From contig CAYGSN010000004.1 of the NCBI GenBank assembly GCA_964352675.1, forward strand, positions 51,844 through 115,843: a DNA stretch of 64,000 bases. Direction: 5' to 3'. Position 1 is the first letter of the stretch. Every line of letters begins with the position of its first letter. Positions 3,452 through 51,288 of this stretch are shown here, one piece after another. The position numbers and the translations under genes were made by a program. The notes under the pieces were generated by a model that saw nothing but the letters and a program-made list of their open reading frames with translations, had not been told where the DNA came from and did not search any database. The DNA is from an uncultured Pseudobdellovibrionaceae bacterium (GTDB taxonomy: Bacteria; Pseudomonadota; Alphaproteobacteria; Micavibrionales; Micavibrionaceae).

Positions 3452-4572
3452 TGTGCACGAAGCTTCTCTATATCATCAATCACATTGACTGGTTCTGGAG
3501 CCACCGCCTGCCGCTTGCCCAAGGCGCACAAAAAGACGGTTACGAGGTTTATGTTGCGGTTACAGACTCCACCAAAGATAAAAAACTGGCGCAGCAAAAC
3601 TTTACCGGGCTGGAGCTTCCGCCGTCTGATCAAGGCTTTACACCCTTAACCATTTTAAAAACCATCTGGGCGATGCACAAGCTGATGGCAGAGCAAAAAC
3701 CGGACATCGTCCATGCTATCACGCTGAAATACGCCTTTATGGCCGGGCTGGCCGCGCGCTCGCATCCGCATATCAAAATCGTACACACGATTGCCGGGCT
3801 GGGATATCTTTTTTCCGGCGAAGGCATGAAGCCAAAGATATTGCGCACACTCATCGGTCCTTTTTTAAAGCTGGCGCTTAAGGGCTGCAACACAGAGCTG
3901 ATTTTTCAAAACCCGGATGATATGAGCTTGCTGATTTCACGCGAATTTGCCCGTAAAGAACAATGTCATCTGATCCGTGGTTCCGGCGTGGATGTGCAGC
4001 AATTTGCGCCAACAGAAGGCGCAGAAGAAACCCCGCCGCTTGTCGTCATGCCGACGCGCCTTGTGCATGATAAGGGCGTAGCCGTGTTCGTGGAGGCCGC
4101 ACGCCTCTTAAAATCGCGCGGCGTTAATGCCCACTTCCAAATCGCCGGCGGCATCACCACCAATAACCCGCTGGCGATTTCACAAAAAGACATGGAAGAA
4201 ATGGTCGCCGATGGCGCGGCGCAGTGGCTGGGAAAAGTTTCTGACATGCCGGATCTGCTCGGCCGGGCCAGCCTTATTGCCTATCCATCTTATTACCGCG
4301 AGGGCATCCCCAAAGTTCTGCTGGAGGCCTGCGCCATGGGCAAGGCGATCATCACCACGGATCATCCCGGATGCCGTGAAGCCGTGGCACATAATGATAA
4401 TGGTCTTCTGGTCCCTATCAAAAATGCTGCGGCTCTTGCCGATGCCATTGCAGAGTTACTGCAGGATAACCAGCGCCGCAACAAAATGGGCCGGCGCAGC
4501 CGTCAGCGCGCGGAAGCAGAATTTGATGTCAGGCTGATCGTTGAAAAAACGCTAGAGGTTTATAAAGATTAA
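3451..4572 (+). CDS. glycosyltransferase family 4 (GT-B, group 1)
   Basis: 373 aa. C-terminal GT1 signature region PSYYREGIPKVLLEACAMGKAIITTD...NGLLV. Translationally coupled to the epimerase. Confidence 0.8.
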   Translation: MCTKLLYIINHIDWFWSHRLPLAQGAQKDGYEVYVAVTDSTKDKKLAQQNFTGLELPPSDQGFTPLTILKTIWAMHKLMAEQKPDIVHAITLKYAFMAGLAARSHPHIKIVHTIAGLGYLFSGEGMKPKILRTLIGPFLKLALKGCNTELIFQNPDDMSLLISREFARKEQCHLIRGSGVDVQQFAPTEGAEETPPLVVMPTRLVHDKGVAVFVEAARLLKSRGVNAHFQIAGGITTNNPLAISQKDMEEMVADGAAQWLGKVSDMPDLLGRASLIAYPSYYREGIPKVLLEACAMGKAIITTDHPGCREAVAHNDNGLLVPIKNAAALADAIAELLQDNQRRNKMGRRSRQRAEAEFDVRLIVEKTLEVYKD

Positions 4573-7324: not shown

Positions 7325-8587
7325 TTAAGCAGCCAGACGCTCCGAAATTTTCTCGTAAGACTCCATTTTCGAAAGCGGTCCCAGAGCCGCAACAGTCGGC
7401 TTGCCGCGGAAAATCTTTTGCGCAACATTTAGAATTTTTTGTACATCTATCGCATCAATCTTTTGTACCATTGCCTGTACATCCAAAACTTTGTCCCGGA
7501 ATATCAGATGCTTGGCTTGCTGATCCGCACGGCTCATCATTGATTCCCGGCCCATCAACATATTGGATCTCAACTGCGCCTTGGCACGTTCAATTTCCTG
7601 CTCATTTACCTCGCGCGTGATTTTCAAAACCTCATCACACACCACGGGAATGAGCTCTGGCAAATCATTCGGCCCTGTTCCTGCATAGATGCCAAACTGC
7701 CCATCATCTGCATAGCCGGAATGATATGAGAATACGGAATAGACCAGCCCACGCTTTTCCCGCACCTCCTGGAACAGGCGCGAAGACATGCCGCCGCCCA
7801 GAATGGTGGATAGCGCCTGCGCGGTATAATAATCCTCATCCAGACGCGAAATCCCCTGAAACCCAATAACAACATGGCTTTGTTCCAGATCTTTCTGCAG
7901 CCGATCCTCCCCACCTTTATAATTCGCCGCTTTTCTGCGCGCAGCATTCTGAGCAGGAAAAGCAAGAAAGACTTCGTGCGCCTTTGCTACAAATTCATCA
8001 TGATCGACATTTCCAGCCGCAGAGATCACTGTGTTTTCAGGAGAATAAAACTCGCTGACATAGTTCATCAAAGTCTCACGCTCCATGTTTTGAATAATGT
8101 CAGCCCGGCCCAAAATCGGTGCGCCGAAAGCCTGATCGGGATAAGCGACTTCGTAATAATTGTCGAACACCAGATCATCCGGCGTGTCGTGGCACATGCC
8201 AATTTCCTGCAGGATCACATGGCGCTCGCGCTCCACCTCCTCTTTCGGCATAACGGAGTTCTGGTACATATCGGCCAGAACCTCTAGCCCCAGCGCAGTA
8301 TCTTCCTTAAGCAAATGGATGTGATAGCTGGTCAGCTCGCGGCTGGTATAAGCATTCATGCTGCCGCCTACATTCTCAATCACTTCAGCAATCTGCGGGG
8401 CGCTGCGGGTTTTCGTCCCTTTGAACAACATATGCTCCACCATATGCGCCGCCCCATTATGCGACAGGTTTTCATTGCGCGTTCCTACGCCAACCCAGAT
8501 GCCGATCGCGGCCGTATCCACCGAGGGCACATGATCGGTAATCACGCGCAAACCATTATCGAGGATTGTGATTTTTATGTCTGACAT
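7325..8587 (-). CDS. M16 family zinc peptidase (pitrilysin / processing-peptidase-like)
   Basis: Inverted zinc motif HMVEHMLFKGT (HxxEH). About 420 aa. I chose the ATG at 8587 (MSDIKITILDNG), 4 nt after the thrC stop. The longer ORF-track start would overlap thrC. Confidence 0.85.
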   Translation of the reverse strand: MSDIKITILDNGLRVITDHVPSVDTAAIGIWVGVGTRNENLSHNGAAHMVEHMLFKGTKTRSAPQIAEVIENVGGSMNAYTSRELTSYHIHLLKEDTALGLEVLADMYQNSVMPKEEVERERHVILQEIGMCHDTPDDLVFDNYYEVAYPDQAFGAPILGRADIIQNMERETLMNYVSEFYSPENTVISAAGNVDHDEFVAKAHEVFLAFPAQNAARRKAANYKGGEDRLQKDLEQSHVVIGFQGISRLDEDYYTAQALSTILGGGMSSRLFQEVREKRGLVYSVFSYHSGYADDGQFGIYAGTGPNDLPELIPVVCDEVLKITREVNEQEIERAKAQLRSNMLMGRESMMSRADQQAKHLIFRDKVLDVQAMVQKIDAIDVQKILNVAQKIFRGKPTVAALGPLSKMESYEKISERLAA

Positions 8588-8591
8588 TGCT

Positions 8592-9983
8592 TTATCTCTC
8601 CAAAATATAGGCGCGTATGGCGCTTTGAACCGCTTGTAAATCATTGGGTAAAATATCGAACTGCTCTTTGCGTTCCATCAAATCGCCTAAATGATCCGGC
8701 AGGGCCGGACGCTGGCCGATGGCTTTTTCGACCGCATCGGGAAATTTCGCCGGGTGAGCCGTGGCCAGCGTAATAACCGTGCCGTGCCCGCCTTCGGATT
8801 CAAGCTGGCGCGCTGCATGCATCCCCACCGCGCTGTGTGGATCGAGGGTGTACTGGTTTTCCTCGTAAACCGCCTTGATTGTCGCCAACGTTTCTTCTTC
8901 GGAACTTCTAAATGCCTTAAACCACTTTTTTGCATTATGTAAAATTAAAGGTGGGGTAGTAGCAATTCGATTGTTTGAAAATTCCTGCATAAACCCCTTC
9001 AGCGCCTCCGCATCTCTTCCCAGCGCATCGAACAGATAGCGCTCGAAATTGCTGGAGATCTGGATGTCCATGGACGGGCTCATGGTCGGCTGAACCTCTG
9101 CCGTGCGCATCTCACCGGTTTCAAGAAACCGCGTCAGAATATCATTGCGGTTCGTGGCAATCGCGAGCGTTTTGATCGGTAGTCCCATCTGCCGCGCGCA
9201 ATAGGCGGCAAACACATTTCCGAAATTTCCGGTCGGCACAACAAAGGACACATCGCCATCCACCTGCAGCACCGCATGCACGTAATAGACAATCTGCGCC
9301 ATGATGCGCGCCCAGTTAATCGAATTCACCGCCGATAAATTCATCTCTGTGCGGAACGGCGCATCATTAAACATCGCCTTGACCAGATTTTGGCAATCAT
9401 CAAACGTGCCATCGAGCGCAATATTATGCACGTTGGGCGCATCCACCGTGGTCATCTGCCGGCGCTGTACGTCCGATACGCGCCCCTTCGGATGCAGGAT
9501 AAAAATTTCTACCCGGTCCGAATGGCGGCAACCCTCAATCGCCGCCGAGCCCGTATCGCCGGAAGTCGCGCCGATGATCGTCACACGCTCATCACGTTTG
9601 GTTAGAACATGATCAAATAACCGCCCGAGAAGTTGCAGCGCCACATCCTTGAACGCCAGCGTCGGGCCGTGGAACTGCTCCATCACATAAAGGTCATTCG
9701 AGAGCTTATGCAGCGGCAGCGGCGGATCATGGCGGAAAATATCCGGCCCGTATGCCTCCTCTAAAATCGTACGAAACGCATCGCGCTCAATGCATCCTTC
9801 CACGAAGGGAAACATCACCGCCTCGGCCACATCAATATAGGATTTGCCCCTCAGCGCCGCCAGATCAAGCGCTGGCCAGCTTTCAGGTACATACAACCCG
9901 CCATCAGGCGCCAGCCCGGCCAACAAGACCTGCTCAAATGTTTGGGGGTTACCCCCGCCGCGCGTGGAAATATAGTTGATCAT
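8592..9983 (-). CDS. thrC: threonine synthase
   Basis: 463 aa. MINYISTRGG N-terminus. PLP-lysine region HGPTLAFKDVALQ. Typical long-form ThrC. Confidence 0.9.
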   Translation of the reverse strand: MINYISTRGGGNPQTFEQVLLAGLAPDGGLYVPESWPALDLAALRGKSYIDVAEAVMFPFVEGCIERDAFRTILEEAYGPDIFRHDPPLPLHKLSNDLYVMEQFHGPTLAFKDVALQLLGRLFDHVLTKRDERVTIIGATSGDTGSAAIEGCRHSDRVEIFILHPKGRVSDVQRRQMTTVDAPNVHNIALDGTFDDCQNLVKAMFNDAPFRTEMNLSAVNSINWARIMAQIVYYVHAVLQVDGDVSFVVPTGNFGNVFAAYCARQMGLPIKTLAIATNRNDILTRFLETGEMRTAEVQPTMSPSMDIQISSNFERYLFDALGRDAEALKGFMQEFSNNRIATTPPLILHNAKKWFKAFRSSEEETLATIKAVYEENQYTLDPHSAVGMHAARQLESEGGHGTVITLATAHPAKFPDAVEKAIGQRPALPDHLGDLMERKEQFDILPNDLQAVQSAIRAYILER

Positions 9984-10104
9984 ACCGCTCTCTTTTTAAA
10001 GCTCCACAAGCTTTATAGCGCATTCTTTACAAAATCTTAAGCTTATTTTCGTATGATAAGCGGATAAAAAACTTAAAAAAACAAGGCAATAGAGGGTAAT
10101 AGGC

Positions 10105-44770: not shown

Positions 44771-46210
44771 ATGCATTGGGGCCAAACTCATTGTTTTGAA
44801 AAGAATTTTTATATTTTGACGTTTTTCAAGCTGCTGCTAGCTGCCGCCCTTGTGCTGGCATTCCTGCTCAGCCTCCAAAGCCCGGCCTCGGCGAAAGGCA
44901 ACCCGAAATACGCCTCGATCGTGATGGATGCCGATACAGGCATGATTTTACACCAGCGCTATGCGGATAAGTCTCTGCATCCGGCCTCCCTTACCAAAGT
45001 CATGACGCTTTTGATGGCCTTCGAAGCCATTGATCAGGGACGGCTAAGCACACGCGATCGCATTCGTATTTCCCGCCACGCTACCAATATGGTCCCCAGC
45101 AAACTGGATTTACCCTCCGGCTCCACCATCGCCGTGGAAGATGCGATTTACGCACTCGTTACGAAATCGGCCAATGATATTGCCGTGGCCATGGCCGAGC
45201 ACCTGGGCGGAACCGAAAGCAATTTCGCACGCATGATGACTCGCAAGGCGCATCAGCTTGGCATGAGCGGCACCATCTTCCGCAACGCCTCCGGTCTGCA
45301 TGACGACCGTCAGGTTACAACCGCGCGCGATATGGCGAAAATGGCGCATTACGTGATCACAAAATATCCGCGCTATTACGAATATTTCTCCACTGCGAAC
45401 TTCACTTATAACGGCAGGAGCTATCACAATCATAACCGGCTGATGAAAACCTACGCCGGGATGGACGGCATGAAAACGGGGTATGTACAGGCTTCGGGTT
45501 TTAATCTGATCGCATCGGCCGTGCGGAAAAATCGCCGCCTGATCGGCGTTGTTTTCGGCGGACGCAGCGCGGCCACGCGCAATGCGCATATGGCGACACT
45601 TTTGGATGAAGGTTTCGCAAAGATGGCCGATATCCGCGTCGCCAGTGCCAATGTTCCCGTTCCCGCGCGCAAACCTGCCGTAGCGGTCGCTCTGGCCGCT
45701 TTAAGCAATTTAAACGCCACCGCCCCGGCCAGCGGCAAAGACATTGTTGATGCAGAAGATGCGGGTGAACAAAAATGGGCCGCTCTCAACCCGGCCCTGG
45801 AAAGCGGAATGTTCGGCCGCCTGATCGGAGAAGGGGATTACGATCCGTCCGTTTCCAAACGCATTGAAACAGGCCTGCTTGCCATTTCCGCGCTAAAAGG
45901 CGAGACCCTTCCCAAAGGTCTAACAGAACCTCAAAATACCCCAAAAACCCCCAAAGCTCTGCGCCGTGAGGCAGCCTTTGCACCATGGTCGATTCAGATT
46001 GGCGCCTTCCTGAGCCGCGCCGCAACCGACACGGCCCTCAACACCACGATAGATAAATTGCCGCCACAATACCGTTTGGCCAGTCGCACAATTGCACCTT
46101 TGAAAACAAATGAAGGCTGGCTCTACCGCGCCCGTCTCAGCGGCTATTCAAAAACCGAAGCTTTCAAAGCCTGTAGTTATATCGATGAATGTATTCCGGT
46201 TGCCCCCTGA
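44771..46210 (+). CDS. serine-type D-Ala-D-Ala carboxypeptidase (PBP5/6-like, S11) with C-terminal SPOR domain
   Basis: Signal/TM segment. SLTK (SxxK), SAN (SxN) and KTG motifs. C-terminal WSIQIGAFLSRAATDTAL...GWLYRARLSGYSKTEAFKAC is SPOR-like. Confidence 0.85.
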   Translation: MHWGQTHCFEKNFYILTFFKLLLAAALVLAFLLSLQSPASAKGNPKYASIVMDADTGMILHQRYADKSLHPASLTKVMTLLMAFEAIDQGRLSTRDRIRISRHATNMVPSKLDLPSGSTIAVEDAIYALVTKSANDIAVAMAEHLGGTESNFARMMTRKAHQLGMSGTIFRNASGLHDDRQVTTARDMAKMAHYVITKYPRYYEYFSTANFTYNGRSYHNHNRLMKTYAGMDGMKTGYVQASGFNLIASAVRKNRRLIGVVFGGRSAATRNAHMATLLDEGFAKMADIRVASANVPVPARKPAVAVALAALSNLNATAPASGKDIVDAEDAGEQKWAALNPALESGMFGRLIGEGDYDPSVSKRIETGLLAISALKGETLPKGLTEPQNTPKTPKALRREAAFAPWSIQIGAFLSRAATDTALNTTIDKLPPQYRLASRTIAPLKTNEGWLYRARLSGYSKTEAFKACSYIDECIPVAP

Positions 46211-46226
46211 TACCGCCACAGTTCCA

Positions 46227-46931
46227 ATGACCACAACATCTCATCCGGAATCCGGCAATATGCTGTTTCTGATTTTGTTGGCTGTAGCGCTGATCGGGCT
46301 TCTGAGCGCGGCCGTGCTGAGCACCAGCGACACCGAAGGCTCGAACATCGACAATGAAACACTCATTATCCGCACCTCGGAAGTGCAGCGCTTTGTATCG
46401 GAGATGGAGCGCGGGGTGCTGTACATCATTCAGAACGGCTATAGCGAAAGCGACATACGTTTCGCCCATCCCGATGCCCCATCAACCTATGGCGATTTGT
46501 CCGCCGATGCCGATCCGGCCGACCAGCTTTTCTCCCCCAGCGGCGGAGCGGCAGAATACAGAGGTGTCCCTTCCGGCATCAACGATGGTAGCGACTGGGA
46601 ATTCTATGGCGGCACAGCAGCGCCTGGAGTTGGCTCGGAAAGAGCGGACCTGCTTGCCGTTCTGCCCAATATCACCCAACAATTTTGTGAACGCATCAAT
46701 ACGTTGAACGGCCAGCCAACGGCCACACCACCCGATGATCCGGCCACTTGTTTTTACAGCGGATCGACAGGACGCTTTAACGATTCAACACAATTCGCCT
46801 CCTCTCCCAATACGATGGATGAAACAACATTTACCCAGGACTCAACGATTACGGCGGCACGCGGCGCAATGCAAGCCTGCGTCACCTGTGGCACAGACTA
46901 TCATTTTTATCATGTATTGATGGCGCGTTAG
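46227..46931 (+). CDS. pilin-like hypothetical secreted protein (paralog of 39466..40182)
   Basis: ATG at 46227, 17 nt after the carboxypeptidase stop (the ORF-track start at 46110 lies inside that gene). N-terminal ESGNMLFLILLAVALIGLLSAAVL. Shared family motifs and the YHFYHVLMAR C-terminus. Confidence 0.6.
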   Translation: MTTTSHPESGNMLFLILLAVALIGLLSAAVLSTSDTEGSNIDNETLIIRTSEVQRFVSEMERGVLYIIQNGYSESDIRFAHPDAPSTYGDLSADADPADQLFSPSGGAAEYRGVPSGINDGSDWEFYGGTAAPGVGSERADLLAVLPNITQQFCERINTLNGQPTATPPDDPATCFYSGSTGRFNDSTQFASSPNTMDETTFTQDSTITAARGAMQACVTCGTDYHFYHVLMAR

Positions 46932-47536
46932 TTGTTGGGCGGATCAGGTTCCAAACGAATGATCCGTGTTTCAGGCTTAGACATTTCGCGCAGATCTCCG
47001 CGCACCTCAAGCGTATAATCAAACCCGCCGACAAAGCGGCCGGTCTGCGTATCAACAAGACGCAGAGAAACATCCAGATCCTTGCGCGTACGCTCTCTAT
47101 ACGTGCCGGAAAGAATAAATCGCGGCTTGCGCTCTGCCTTATTAATGCCCTGCAGATAGACGCCATCCACCGCTTCACTCACCTCACTCATATCCACACT
47201 ATAGCCAAGTTGTGAGAGGCGCGTTCCCACCTGTTCGGGAATAACTTTTGCGATTGTGGTATAGATTTCCGGTTCTTCTATATCAGTCAGGGGCGAAGCC
47301 TTGATCACATCGCGATCCTTGCGCACAAAAGTCTCTGCCTGGTGGATCAGGTAATCCGCTGCCGCGTAGTTTTTCTCCACCAGATTGGTTCCGGGACGGG
47401 TAAAATAAGTATAAGCATCGCTTCCGGCCTTGCTCAATGCCGTTGTCACTGTTGCCTCACACCCTCCAACAAACAACACTGCGCAAAAACACACCAAAGG
47501 TAAACCCGCATATCTATAAGAATATTTTATACTCAC
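46928..47536 (-). CDS. putative lipoprotein (FlgO/LpoB-like pattern, weak)
   Basis: Lipobox LFVGGC. GTG at 47536 overlaps the stop of the upstream lipoprotein gene (GTGA). The ORF-track start at 47557 is also GTG. The later part (ILSGTY...LDVSLRLVDTQTGRFV) resembles FlgO-type domains. Confidence 0.5.
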   Translation of the reverse strand: MSIKYSYRYAGLPLVCFCAVLFVGGCEATVTTALSKAGSDAYTYFTRPGTNLVEKNYAAADYLIHQAETFVRKDRDVIKASPLTDIEEPEIYTTIAKVIPEQVGTRLSQLGYSVDMSEVSEAVDGVYLQGINKAERKPRFILSGTYRERTRKDLDVSLRLVDTQTGRFVGGFDYTLEVRGDLREMSKPETRIIRLEPDPPNN

Positions 47537-48132
47537 TGGTTCAAATCCCGATCCCACATTGAGTAATGATCATAACCGTATTCCGGCAACTTTGCCGCAC
47601 CGCGCAATTCGCCCAATGGCAACCCTTCGCGCTCAACCTCCAAAATCAAAACAAAATCCTGTAATACGCCGGGCACAACAGTACCATCTACCTGGCGAAC
47701 TTTTTTTGCTTTTGGAATTAAATTCACCACACCTTGCGGGTGATCGGCCAGATGATAGCCGCGCCTGCGGAACTCGTCGCGCAGCATATGATCATAGGTG
47801 GTAAAGAATGGCGTCTGGCCCGCGCGTTTTAACTCTCCGCTTTTTGGATCGAGCGGACGTTCATGCTGGCGAATGAAAACTTCTTTTTCAGCCAGCCTCA
47901 CATGGGATTCAAAATCATCAACCATGGTTTTAATCACATCGGCCCAGACATCCAGAACAGCCTGGTTTTCCACCGCGCTGTAATCATAGCCAATATCCGA
48001 TGCCTCCCCGCCGGGCGGTGATTTGTATCGTTTGTTGTGATGCTCATACCCGTCAGGCATAAAATTCGGCCCGTTAAAAGGGTGACAAGCGGCAAGAAAA
48101 ACCATCAAGGAAACAAAAGGGACAAAGCGCAT
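47533..48132 (-). CDS. hypothetical lipoprotein
   Basis: MRFVPFVSLMVFLAAC lipobox. 199 aa. No other motif. Confidence 0.55.
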   Translation of the reverse strand: MRFVPFVSLMVFLAACHPFNGPNFMPDGYEHHNKRYKSPPGGEASDIGYDYSAVENQAVLDVWADVIKTMVDDFESHVRLAEKEVFIRQHERPLDPKSGELKRAGQTPFFTTYDHMLRDEFRRRGYHLADHPQGVVNLIPKAKKVRQVDGTVVPGVLQDFVLILEVEREGLPLGELRGAAKLPEYGYDHYSMWDRDLNQ

Positions 48133-48615: not shown

Positions 48616-50142
48616 CTAGGCCGCGCCTTTGATTTTGGAGATGGAGGAGGTCGTGCTATGGCCGTCATGCATGCCCATCACCTTGACCTGCCCGCCATAA
48701 GATTGCACCGTCGACGCTTCCGGGATCTCTTCCAGATTGTAATCGCCGCCCTTGAAATACACATCCGGCTTCAAGGTTTCGAGCAGCGCAATGGCGGTAT
48801 TATCTTTGCCCGCTTCTTCTGCGCCAAACAGCACCACCATATCGACCGCTCCCAGAGCGCCCAGAACAGCGGCGCGGGCATCCTCATCATGCACAGGGCG
48901 ATCCGGTCCCTTTAGTATACACACCGATTCATCACGGTTCAGCGCGACAATCAGCCGGTCGCAATTCTGCCGCGCTTCATTCAGATAGCTCACATGTCCT
49001 TTATGCAGCACATCAAAGCAGCCATTGGTAAAACCGACTTTCAATCCGCGTGCACGCCAGCGCTTCACATCCTCCGACGCTTCGTCCCAACCCTGTAGCG
49101 GGGCCTGGCGCGTCCGGCTTAATGACGATCTGGACGAATCATCCAGCGCGATTTGCAACTCTTCAAAGCGCACCGGCGCCGTGCCCACCTTTGTCACCAC
49201 AATACTGCCCGCCAGATTGGCCAGTTCCGCCGCCTGCAGCAACTCTGCGCCGGCCGCCATGCCTGCGGCAATTGTCGCAATCACCGCATCCCCCGCGCCG
49301 GACACATCAAACACTTCGATATCACCGACCGAACGGATATGGGCAGGGCTTTGTCCTTTTTGAATCACGCTCATCCCATCTTTGGAGCGCGTTGCGATGA
49401 CGGCTTCAATCCCGCATTCATTAATAATTTTTTCTGCCGCGGCAATGATGGATTCGTCATTGCTCACGGCCATGCCGCGCGCCGCTTCCGACAACTCTTT
49501 CTTGTTCGGCGTAACTACGGTCGCCCCTTTATAGATTGAAAAATCCGCGCCTTTTGGATCTACAATGATTGGAATGTCTTTGTCCTGCGCTTCTTTGATA
49601 ACGGTGTTCAAAATATTCTGCGTTAAAACACCCTTGCCGTAATCGGAAAGCAAAACCGCTCCAACACCGTCCAGCGCCTTTAAAACAGCCCTCAGCACCT
49701 TTTCATGAGCATCGGAAGAAATAGCCTGCTTGCTTTCCTGATCTGTACGCAATAATTGCTGGTGCCCAGCCAGAAAGCGCGTCTTTACGATGGTCGGCCA
49801 TACCGAATCGGTGATTAGAAGATCATCATCGAAGCCCAGGGTTTTAACCTTGTCCCGGACCAGTCGCCCTTCCGCATCGTCACCCACCACACTCACAATC
49901 CGGGCCTGCGCTCCCAGACCGGCCAGATTGGCCAGCGCGTTGCCTGCCCCGCCCAGCATACGCTCCTCCCGTCCGATAGAAAGCACCGGTACCGGGCTTT
50001 CGGGAGAAATCCGTTCAACCGTACCGTATACGAAACGATCCAGCATAATGTCACCGACAACCAAAACACGCTGGTTCTTAATGCGCTGCAATACATTGTG
50101 CAGAACGGCTTTTTCACCAGATTTTTCTTTGTTTTCAGCCAT
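48616..50142 (-). CDS. hldE: bifunctional D-beta-D-heptose 7-phosphate kinase / D-beta-D-heptose 1-phosphate adenylyltransferase
   Basis: 508 aa. N-terminal PfkB-type kinase (GAGDAV). C-terminal cytidylyltransferase (GCFDVLHKGHV). Confidence 0.93.
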   Translation of the reverse strand: MAENKEKSGEKAVLHNVLQRIKNQRVLVVGDIMLDRFVYGTVERISPESPVPVLSIGREERMLGGAGNALANLAGLGAQARIVSVVGDDAEGRLVRDKVKTLGFDDDLLITDSVWPTIVKTRFLAGHQQLLRTDQESKQAISSDAHEKVLRAVLKALDGVGAVLLSDYGKGVLTQNILNTVIKEAQDKDIPIIVDPKGADFSIYKGATVVTPNKKELSEAARGMAVSNDESIIAAAEKIINECGIEAVIATRSKDGMSVIQKGQSPAHIRSVGDIEVFDVSGAGDAVIATIAAGMAAGAELLQAAELANLAGSIVVTKVGTAPVRFEELQIALDDSSRSSLSRTRQAPLQGWDEASEDVKRWRARGLKVGFTNGCFDVLHKGHVSYLNEARQNCDRLIVALNRDESVCILKGPDRPVHDEDARAAVLGALGAVDMVVLFGAEEAGKDNTAIALLETLKPDVYFKGGDYNLEEIPEASTVQSYGGQVKVMGMHDGHSTTSSISKIKGAA

Positions 50143-50304
50143 TTTCCTGCTTTTTCCCCTAAAAACTCCAGAATTGTTAAGAATGCCCCGTTTTTATGCC
50201 GTTTTGTTAGGAATTCGTCAATCTTTCTCGTGTTTAATAAAGGGGTGGAAACGGGCAAACATGGCGGAATAGCTAAGTAAACACCAAAGGGACCAGATAG
50301 AAAA

Positions 50305-51288
50305 ATGAGTGGCACAAAGCAAGAAAATCACCAACCAAGAGTTTTAAAGCGCAAAAAGCGCGGCATCCTCCAGGACATGAAATATATGGTGAACCGCAGC
50401 CGCCTCGGCGAGCTTCTGGTGTCCAAAGGGCTAGTCTCCCCACAAGATTTACGTTTTGCTCTGGCCACCCAGAAGCAAACTCACAAACCTCTGGGCCAGG
50501 TTTTCATCTCTGAGAACATGATTTCACAGCGCGATCTGACATTACTTTTGATGCGTCAGACTTTGCTACGCATGGCTGCCGCGTTTTTGCTCTGCGCCGC
50601 TTCGATTTCCATTATCGGCGTTAAGCGCGCCAAGGCCGATTCGATCCAGGATGTGCCAGCCAAGATTTCTGTTGCCTTTTCACAAGCCAGCGCAGCCAGC
50701 TATCCGAAAATCGGATCTTATCCGGCGCTGTTCGGCTCGGCGGAAAAGCGCTCCGGCAATCTTGAGCCTTTTACAAAATGGACCAGCATGTTCAAACGTT
50801 TTGAGCGCGAATTAAACACGACCAGCGCGATGACCGTTATCGCTCAGTGGCAGGAAAATCTGCGCGACATTCAGGGCGGCTCCCTGAAGACAATGGCTGA
50901 CCGGGTCAACACCATGGTTAACAAGACACGCTATATCGTAGACTCCCGCAACTGGGGTCAAAGCGATTACTGGGCCACACCGGTTGAATTCCTGCAGCGT
51001 GGAGGCGATTGTGAAGACTACGCAATCACAAAATACACTGCCCTGCGTGCAATGGGCGTGCCGGAAGAGCGCCTGAGAATCGCCATTGTCCACGACAATC
51101 TCAAAAACATCCCGCATGCCGTTCTGGTGGTCTACACCAATGAAGGCACCTTTATTCTGGACAACCAGAATGAAGACATGCTGGACGGCGAACGCGGCAA
51201 GCGCTACCGTCCGATCTTCTCCATCAACCGTCAAGCTTGGTGGCTGCATACCCAGGGCGGGGACACGGTTCTGGCCTCTGCAGAATAA
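50305..51288 (+). CDS. MshEN-like c-di-GMP-binding module / TM helix / BTLCP (LapG-like, Peptidase C93) cysteine protease fusion
   Basis: Residues 33-85: RLGELLVSKGLVSPQDLRFALATQ-KQTHK-PLGQVFISENMISQRDLTLLLMRQ. Residues 86-106: hydrophobic helix. Then the BTLCP triad blocks GGDCEDYA (C236), PHAVLVV (H271) and ILDN (D286). Confidence 0.75.
   Translation: MSGTKQENHQPRVLKRKKRGILQDMKYMVNRSRLGELLVSKGLVSPQDLRFALATQKQTHKPLGQVFISENMISQRDLTLLLMRQTLLRMAAAFLLCAASISIIGVKRAKADSIQDVPAKISVAFSQASAASYPKIGSYPALFGSAEKRSGNLEPFTKWTSMFKRFERELNTTSAMTVIAQWQENLRDIQGGSLKTMADRVNTMVNKTRYIVDSRNWGQSDYWATPVEFLQRGGDCEDYAITKYTALRAMGVPEERLRIAIVHDNLKNIPHAVLVVYTNEGTFILDNQNEDMLDGERGKRYRPIFSINRQAWWLHTQGGDTVLASAE

Follow-up and report, generated by a model that had tools for sequence, protein, structure and literature searches.

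In this study, we found a gene that joins a putative receptor module for the second messenger c-di-GMP (cyclic dimeric guanosine monophosphate) to a cysteine protease, predicted to be periplasmic, in a single polypeptide, the module being best read as an N-terminal extension of the Sec signal peptide of the protease. The gene lies in a 64,000-nucleotide stretch of DNA, hereafter the window, from an uncultured Pseudobdellovibrionaceae bacterium that the GTDB assigns to the alphaproteobacterial family Micavibrionaceae (GenBank assembly GCA_964352675.1, contig CAYGSN010000004.1, positions 51,844 to 115,843 of the forward strand). Its product is composed of a basic leader, an MshEN_N module, a hydrophobic segment, a subfamily-specific segment and the catalytic domain of a bacterial transglutaminase-like cysteine proteinase (BTLCP, Peptidase_C93), in this order (Table 1). 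The initial annotation of the window had described an MshEN-type receptor covalently linked to a LapG-like protease across the membrane, and its open reading frame (ORF) of 50305-51288, the length of 327 residues and the peptide strings quoted in it are all correct. We propose that the Sec signal peptide of a periplasmic C93 protease carries a c-di-GMP-binding extension that gates insertion or release, a proposal that we consider about as well placed to be right as to be wrong. As far as homologous sequences tell, the fusion is a clade-wide family of Micavibrio-type Alphaproteobacteria, and this family is a previously unrecognised effector, with predicted c-di-GMP binding, of the whole epibiotic-predator clade.

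The sensory part of this proposal is the MshEN_N module of residues 33-85. According to Wang 2016 (PMC5013675), MshEN_N consists of two 24-residue copies of the motif RLGxx(L/V/I)(L/V/I)xxG(L/V/I)(L/V/I)xxxxLxxxLxxQ with a 5-residue spacer, and R9, L10, G11, L25, L29, Q32, L39, G40, L54, L58 and Q61 of MshE contact c-di-GMP. The tandem motifs with this spacer that had been read in the product hold: motif 1 is complete, motif 2 fits the relaxed form of the motif apart from one residue, and the profile NF053729 (c-di-GMP_motif, MshE-related) matched residues 33-85 with 56.5 bits (cutoff 38 bits; E=1.7e-15) over model positions 1-53 of 53. A sequence search with the same residues found solved MshE (5HTL, E=3.5e-5), Thermus PilF (6F8L, E=3.7e-7) and also PilB ATPases. 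In the AlphaFold2 model, which was built from 115 homologues and has a mean predicted local distance difference test (pLDDT) score of 84, residues 40-90 reach a pLDDT of about 95 and the module takes the four-helix (two-hairpin) fold of liganded MshE. Foldseek placed the module onto c-di-GMP-bound MshE (5HTL) over 54 columns with a root-mean-square deviation of 0.8-1.0 Å and 42% identity; the E-value of this match alone was weak (0.18), the full-length protein having been the query.

A homologue search of 5.8 billion proteins yielded 2734 relatives, the best 120 of which were examined in detail, and all conservation counts given here as a number of 115 refer to an alignment of 115 homologues. 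In motif 1, R or K33 is found in 115 sequences, G35 in 115, G42 in 111, L49 in 115, L53 in 113 and Q56 in 107, and the counts in motif 2 are 100 for P62, 110 for L63, 115 for G64, 114 for L78, 115 for L82 and 115 for Q85. The contact residues R9/L10/G11/L25/L29/Q32 of Vibrio cholerae MshE (VcMshE) correspond to R33/L34/G35/L49/L53/Q56, and L39/G40/L54/L58/Q61 correspond to L63/G64/L78/L82/Q85; each of them is at least 93% conserved. Judged from these alignments, the MshEN_N subdomain is complete and keeps nearly all c-di-GMP-contacting residues of MshE.

PF05157 (T2SSE_N), the Pfam family to which the initial annotation had tied the module, gave no match even at E<=10, either with the whole protein or with residues 1-102. 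T2SSE_N is the entire MshEN domain with its N and C subdomains (Wang 2016, PMC5013675), and the protein has the MshEN_N subdomain only, without MshEN_C. The null result does not refute the assignment, because NF053729, the sequence matches to MshE 5HTL and PilF 6F8L and the superposition at 0.8 Å are all positive; the MshEN_N identity thus stands while the Pfam label does not. Since PF05157 misses stand-alone MshEN_N, Pfam-based censuses of c-di-GMP receptors undercount. Separately, DUF4388 (PF14332) showed a weak match over motif 1 (50395-50475, residues 31-57; N-terminal fragment, E=0.0044, below cutoff), which suggests that DUF4388 contains an MshEN_N-like motif.

The module runs directly into residues 86-106, the only hydrophobic segment in the protein. 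The single helix described there by the initial annotation is present; a stable anchor is, however, not obvious, given the short core, the A/S-x-A site and the homology to signal peptides. Cleavage by signal peptidase I follows a short h-region and small residues at -3 and -1, and internal signals can be cut as well. Across the family, the uncharged core has 12-17 residues (median 15), the -3 position (A109) is Ala in 110 and Ser in 5 homologues, the -1 position (A111) is Ala in 114 and Ser in 1, and the +1 position (112) is Asp or Glu in 102/115. R84 and R89 are located upstream of the hydrophobic helix. In the AlphaFold2 model a single helix extends from residue 75 to 103, and residues 104-112 have a pLDDT below 50, i.e., they are flexible. 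Pairwise identity is 34% in the helix, 53% in MshEN_N and 65% in the c-region, so that the helix is conserved in composition only, as expected of an h-region and not of a specific signalling helix.

The usual features of a signal peptide are found here, namely a basic n-region, an h-region of ~8-17 residues and small residues at -3 and -1, the odd points being an n-region of 85 residues and a Lys-Lys in the c-region. In the comparison with plain BTLCPs, by which we mean short family members without the sensor and with an ordinary N-terminal Sec signal peptide, the hydrophobic stretches and the A-x-A boxes of fused and plain proteins (P0147, P0152, P0170, P0125, P0159 and others) share columns. 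Distant fused members (38-45% identity) also keep an A-x-A-type site, without the KK (P0139, ...VAQA/D; P0141, ...ASYA/G; the slash marks the putative cut). The signal-like h-region and A-x-A box lie 85 residues from the N-terminus and are homologous to those of plain BTLCPs, and on these alignments the helix is positionally homologous to their cleavable Sec signal peptides. A natural sensor-less variant was found at 3452-4240 of locus L092: P0136 (262 aa) is a syntenic orthologue, its gene being flanked by a divergent hldE with the conserved intergenic block in between. It has lost MshEN motif 2, keeps only a remnant of motif 1 and has an ordinary short N-terminal signal peptide. Since P0136 lost the sensor and the protease gene was kept, it suggests that the sensor is a detachable accessory that serves the protease. 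The short core, the A-x-A box, the shared columns, the variable helix and this orthologue together point to a cleavable signal peptide that received an MshEN_N module on its n-region and in which the -3/-1 rule appears to be still selected. Two other kinds of signal were tried and rejected. For a Tat (twin-arginine translocation) signal, prompted by the basic c-region, the sequence has no RR motif; for a lipoprotein signal, Cys97 has no preceding lipobox and a Cys is present in only 37/115 homologues.

The following mechanism may be considered. In the cytoplasm, c-di-GMP would bind to the MshEN_N module. The last ligand-binding helix of the module (residues 75-85, with L78, L82 and Q85) is predicted to join the short hydrophobic segment with no linker between them, and since the modelled helix 75-103 is unbroken, ligand occupancy should affect the position of this segment. 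Occupancy would alter the engagement of the segment with Sec or its seating in the membrane, as well as the presentation of A109-x-A111 to signal peptidase I, and as the outcome c-di-GMP would set the amount of free, active protease in the periplasm. High c-di-GMP could mean either retention or release of the protease. The protein would then be functionally analogous, in one polypeptide, to the sequestration of LapG by LapD, and would act via export or processing without a separate receptor. Of the covalent link of sensor and protease across the membrane, the single conserved polypeptide is upheld; the link itself may be merely a transient precursor state. In its strict form, that c-di-GMP on the signal-peptide extension directly gates insertion of the protease or its release by signal peptidase I across the Micavibrio-type predators, the mechanism is possible but rather doubtful.

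Several points, given in this paragraph and at the start of the next, weigh against such gating. We know of no ligand-gated signal-peptide processing. In the literature searched none was described, the searches having been aimed at the fusion and not at the mechanism. The neighbourhood of the gene yields neither a partner nor a substrate, and the synteny may reflect common descent alone. In the module itself, motif 2 opens with Pro62 where MshE has Arg38, and Asn71 at the second turn, a Gly/Ala site, falls outside [GAS], the family majority being Ala or Ser; these two residues could lower the affinity for c-di-GMP. It might even be argued from the Pro in place of Arg and the Asn in place of the turn Gly that the MshEN_N-like part no longer binds the ligand and is a structural or interaction extension, which, for example, slows or targets export as extended signal peptides do. 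Binding has been lost in some homologues of MshEN, XpsE among them (Wang 2016, PMC5013675), and GGDEF or EAL genes are not regular neighbours of the fused gene. However, XpsE lost eight contacts, whereas all Leu, Gly and Gln contacts are conserved at 93% or more over the 115 sequences here, and Pro at motif position 1 is permitted in the relaxed motif of Wang 2016 (PMC5013675). The NF053729 score above its curated cutoff and the superposition of the model on the liganded structure at 0.8 Å also speak for a binding module, and we consider loss of binding quite improbable.

The remaining points concern the hydrophobic segment. Cleavage is predicted from the -3/-1 rule and homology; the c-region is strongly basic (K107, K108, R/K/H110) in the Micavibrio-type core, which is atypical of Sec signals and might disfavour cleavage or translocation; and residues 86-106 (21 aa) could span the bilayer if R89 snorkels. 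The model of the initial annotation was in fact a stable type II (N-in/C-out) signal anchor, in which the helix remains uncleaved and the protease is tethered to the inner membrane, c-di-GMP shifting oligomerisation, localisation, stability or helix position and thereby the access of the protease to substrates. The precursor is necessarily N-in/C-out, the continuous helix 75-103 of the AlphaFold2 model would rigidly couple the ligand site to the membrane segment, and the conserved K107-K108-x-R/K/H110 before the putative site would be unusual in a cleaved signal. An anchor, on the other hand, gives no reason for small residues at -3 and -1, yet 115/115 homologues keep them and so do the distant members. 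With a median of 15 uncharged residues, the core would make a short anchor; plain relatives have cleavable signal peptides to which both helix and site are homologous; 34% identity in the helix speaks against specific helix-helix signalling, and the characterised BTLCPs, LapG and HvyA, are soluble periplasmic enzymes. A permanently tethered protease seems unlikely to us, if by no means far-fetched.

If the site is cut constitutively, the 111-residue MshEN_N-helix fragment might stay in the membrane as an independent c-di-GMP receptor or buffer, its ratio to the secreted protease, itself otherwise unregulated, being fixed. Such a bifunctional precursor would share the evidence for cleavage described above. 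MshEN_N is conserved as strongly as the N-segment of the protease, and other bacteria have MshEN_N proteins of the stand-alone or tandem type (Wang 2016, Supplementary Table 4). The constant attachment of the sensor to one protease would, however, be left unexplained, and the loss of the sensor with retention of the protease gene in L092 suggests that the sensor serves the protease. According to textbook knowledge, signal peptide peptidases normally degrade cleaved signal peptides fast. We give this possibility very little weight, and return to the signal-peptide extension as the preferred reading.

This reading depends on translation of the N-terminal region, which, to judge from its conservation, is translated and under constraint. 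The ATG at 50305 is the first start codon past the upstream stop. It is assigned as the start because the conserved stretch of the family sets in at Gly20, before Met25 and Met28, and no ATG, GTG or TTG lies between 50305 and Met25. G20 and R31 are at least 90% conserved among 20 homologues; in the 115-sequence alignment G20 again reaches at least 90% and R31 is found in 96/115. Residues 21-30 are helical in the AlphaFold2 model. Query coverage is 89-100% in the best 120 of the 2734 homologues, and in 80/80 genomic loci (the best 80 in GTDB species genomes) the tblastn matches begin at query residues 1-22 and run to the end. Pairwise identity in MshEN_N (53%) is close to that in the mature N-segment (54%). 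The initial annotation had named as its refuting case an ordinary secreted LapG translated from an internal Met90, which was not borne out. Such an annotation artefact, with the true start at Met90 or nearby, an ordinary secreted BTLCP and an unexpressed upstream frame, could appeal to the place of Met90 immediately before the hydrophobic stretch in the window, and to the start calls in databases, which vary (P0001 begins at Met28). Position 90 is, however, Met in only 8/115 homologues, so that there is no conserved internal start; 55 upstream residues are conserved as protein with a precise ligand-binding pattern, and the matches in 80 genomes begin as stated. By these comparisons the internal start is effectively refuted, with hardly any probability left to it. 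As to P0001 itself, this identical database protein of 300 aa lacks what corresponds to 50305-50385 of the window. Its start omits the conserved Gly20-Ile-Leu helix and the basic patch, and start calls vary among the records of the family; the annotation of P0001 is probably 27 residues too short.

The protease part was described correctly as a BTLCP with Cys236, His271 and Asp286. PF06035 (Peptidase_C93) matched residues 198-297 with 82 bits (cutoff 27 bits; E=5.2e-23), and C236, H271 and D286, which align with the triad region of LapG, are invariant in 115 homologues. D235, E237 and D238 are also invariant (115), GGDCEDYA thus keeping acidic residues beside the catalytic Cys. The best PDB sequence matches are LapG 4FGO and 4U65 (E=5e-21 and 1.6e-18), and LapG is also the top Foldseek match (E about 1e-10, TM-score about 0.7 on target), with an identity of 31-35% in the structural and sequence matches. 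The term LapG-like therefore holds for the family C93 and the fold, but not for LapG proper. The LapG equivalog NF045674 gave 104.6 bits against a cutoff of 320 bits, with model positions 42-193 of 221 aligned. A strongly conserved segment of 60 residues (113-172), with E147, F156, K158 and W159 invariant among 115 homologues, is covered by none of the LapG, PF06035 and NF045674 alignments obtained and is common to plain alphaproteobacterial-type BTLCPs. No lapD, LapA-like adhesin or type I secretion system (T1SS) was found among the gene families that recur within about 9 kb in the 80 loci or among the genes called within 6-10 kb in 8 further contigs. In the 64-kb window, motif scans detected no GGDEF, EAL or HD-GYP signatures, and motif scans together with Pfam scans of large ORFs detected no lapD, lapA, adhesin or T1SS; this is consistent with the earlier statement that the window has no lapD, lapA, GGDEF or EAL gene. 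Because the equivalog score was missed, the extra segment 113-172 is present and no Lap genes are nearby, the protease is a C93/BTLCP member and not a LapG orthologue. An envelope- or polysaccharide-linked target may be slightly likelier than a LapA-type adhesin, because of the hldE neighbourhood, family-2 glycosyltransferase (GT2) and DegT genes in one locus (L084) and the precedent of HvyA.

The idea of a single occurrence proved wrong, as the sensor is carried by 114/120 close homologues and by all of the 80 genomic loci. The best 120 homologues have 286-384 aa and are 53-63% identical to the query, save one identical protein. The 80 loci, which include complete chromosomes of Micavibrio aeruginosavorus, are nearly all labelled Micavibrio, Alphaproteobacteria, Rhodospirillales or 'Pseudobdellovibrionaceae'; the labels are mixed because the NCBI taxonomy places Micavibrio in Bdellovibrionales. 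Among the best 150 representatives from a protein library clustered at 50% identity, the sensor motif is present in about 20, down to 38% identity, and the remainder are short plain BTLCPs. The source names of the close homologues, among the matches listed, are only 'transglutaminase-like cysteine peptidase' or hypothetical protein. Three secreted relatives, P0192 (417 aa), P0207 (453 aa) and P0220 (428 aa), have two BTLCP-like domains in tandem, the first of which appears to be without the catalytic Cys motif and looks degenerate.

Neither part of the protein is new, nor is the general notion that c-di-GMP can control proteolysis by a BTLCP. In the LapD-LapG system of Pseudomonas fluorescens and Legionella pneumophila, a cytoplasmic c-di-GMP signal governs a periplasmic protease (PMC3032545, PMC4359373). 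The fused protein shares with LapG the family C93, the Cys-His-Asp triad and the acidic DCED motif, LapG being its best structural match, and the logic of cytoplasmic c-di-GMP and a periplasmic protease is predicted here from sequence to be the same. However, the Lap receptor is a second protein, LapD (HAMP, degenerate GGDEF-EAL), by which LapG is sequestered, whereas MshEN_N stands in cis before the signal peptide; the fused protein also differs from LapG in its extra conserved segment 113-172, in the missed equivalog score and in the absence of Lap genes from the window and the 80+ loci. With the MshEN domains of MshE, PilB, PilF and NfrB it has in common two 24-residue motifs, a 5-residue spacer and the same ligand-contact residues. 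It differs from them in that MshEN_C is absent and the output is a signal peptide with a protease predicted to be exported, not a cytoplasmic ATPase or glycosyltransferase. The fusions recorded by Wang 2016 (PMC5013675) include ATPases, GT2, REC, CheA, CheX, kinases, AAA_31/EpsG, TrxB and Peptidase_M23; a BTLCP/C93 fusion is not in the list of MshEN/MshEN_N fusions in Supplementary Table 4 (PMC5013675). The entry closest in layout is NlpD AM1_1153 of Acaryochloris marina, catalogued there and uncharacterised, with MshEN_N N-terminal to a cell-envelope hydrolase. That hydrolase is, by the catalogue, an M23 metallopeptidase of another phylum, and the resemblance suggests a shared design principle. 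No description of an MshEN_N-BTLCP fusion was found in the full-text literature searched, an incomplete collection, in agreement with the initial annotation, which knew of no described example.

HvyA of Caulobacter crescentus is the only functionally studied alphaproteobacterial BTLCP. It is a Sec-exported periplasmic BTLCP of a capsule locus whose abundance is tightly time-restricted (Ardissone et al. 2014, PMC4241560). Like HvyA, the fused protein is an alphaproteobacterial BTLCP with a predicted Sec signal, encoded near surface-polysaccharide genes (hldE in the window; GT2/DegT in L084), and its nearest plain relatives are short signal-peptide BTLCPs of the HvyA kind. In contrast, HvyA, compared here by its description, lacks a nucleotide-binding module, its signal peptide is a plain one, and its control acts on abundance, through transcription and proteolysis in G1. 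So far, c-di-GMP control of periplasmic proteolysis has been understood via the two-protein LapD-LapG system, and MshEN modules are known chiefly as regulators of cytoplasmic ATPases and glycosyltransferases. If occupancy of the module governs export or processing, this would be a new route for a cytoplasmic second messenger to act across a membrane: a compact, receptor-less inside-out signalling with second-messenger control at the signal peptide itself. A gated signal peptide would, if true, tentatively count as a categorically new mechanism, and given the MshEN_N-Peptidase_M23 fusion it could be a general principle. The conserved pairing with hldE hints at regulated cell-envelope remodelling in the predatory life cycle.

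The hldE gene is divergent upstream of the fused gene in 70/80 loci, and it has this place in the distant members L086, L087 and L092 as well. The intergenic region common to both genes contains a block of ~47 bp, TTT.TGC...TTTGTTA.GA.TTCGTCAATCTTT.T...GTTTAAT, which is visible in a 45-sequence alignment and is also present in L092; TTCGTCAA occurs in 43/70 related intergenic regions. By inspection, the minus strand of the block reads TTGACG, 17 nt, CATAAA, probably the promoter of hldE. A consensus sigma-70 scan of both strands gave no match, and a promoter/terminator scan around the gene gave nothing above shuffle expectation. A CtrA box (TTAA-N7-TTAA), considered because CtrA controls hvyA, was rejected, being present in only 5/70 intergenic regions. 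The fused gene is monocistronic in the 80 loci, with a convergent pyruvate kinase, nrdA, ileS or cation diffusion facilitator (CDF) transporter gene on the other side. When neighbour families within about 9 kb of the gene were clustered, hldE, pyruvate kinase, nrdAB, ileS, the CDF transporter, lipoproteins, dacC and phasin recurred; no operon or partner gene was consistent among these 80 loci and the 8 further contigs (6-10 kb), the 80 loci having housekeeping genes only. In the window the neighbours are hldE, nrdAB, D-Ala-D-Ala carboxypeptidase, phasin and lipoproteins, and asnB, metE, Clp ATPase, guaA and guaB are among the large ORFs.

Table 1. Positions in the window of the fused gene, its parts and the features upstream of it
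Feature	Position	Strand	Remarks
Whole gene, encoding a BTLCP protease precursor with MshEN_N and a signal-peptide-like helix	50305..51288	+	327 aa plus stop
Basic N-terminal leader, residues 1-32	50305..50400	+	conserved G20-I-L...K..L.R segment (model helix 21-30), Arg31
MshEN_N motif 1, residues 33-56, RLGELLVSKGLVSPQDLRFALATQ	50401..50472	+	all fixed motif positions of Wang 2016 present
Spacer, 5 residues 57-61, KQTHK	50473..50487	+	length as in the MshE definition (PMC5013675); positions variable
MshEN_N motif 2, residues 62-85, PLGQVFISENMISQRDLTLLLMRQ	50488..50559	+	fits the relaxed motif except Asn71
Hydrophobic segment, residues 86-106	50560..50622	+	h-region of a signal peptide, or membrane helix; continues the last helix of motif 2
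c-region, putative signal peptidase I site K107 R108 A109 K110 A111 / D112	50623..50640	+	
N-terminal part of the mature protein, specific to the subfamily, residues 113-172, YPALFG..EKRS.NL..FTKW..MF.RF	50641..50820	+	
BTLCP / Peptidase_C93 catalytic domain, residues ~173-320	50821..51264	+	PF06035, LapG structures by sequence and fold
Catalytic codon Cys236	51010-51012	+	
Catalytic codon His271	51115-51117	+	
Catalytic codon Asp286	51160-51162	+	
Divergent intergenic region common with hldE	50143..50304	.	conserved block 50193-50239
hldE (bifunctional heptose kinase/adenylyltransferase)	48616..50142	-	PfkB and CTP_transf_like domains
Second putative lipoprotein	47533-48132		
FlgO-like lipoprotein	46928-47557		
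273-aa protein	46110-46931		no Pfam match; pilin-like hydrophobic N-terminal segment
D-Ala-D-Ala carboxypeptidase	44771-46210		

Some further observations were made on the surroundings of the gene. Upstream of hldE in the window lies a cluster of envelope proteins (44771-48132), which is syntenic in 18-54/80 loci. In L084 (249-3574), genes for an acyltransferase, a NUDIX hydrolase, a DegT-type aminotransferase and a family-2 glycosyltransferase precede a distant fused gene on the same strand; this sugar-modification cluster recalls the setting of HvyA in a capsule locus. ORFs with GGDEF or EAL signatures were found in the flanks of 4 loci. One of these is L089, from a marine relative (P0146, 40% identity), where the fused gene at 8001-8921 is followed after 16 bp by a convergent GGDEF gene (8937-10001, minus strand, 354 aa); it is the only locus with an adjoining c-di-GMP enzyme. 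In M. aeruginosavorus a cNMP-EAL phosphodiesterase has been described (PMC6717892), and c-di-GMP turnover enzymes thus do exist in these organisms.

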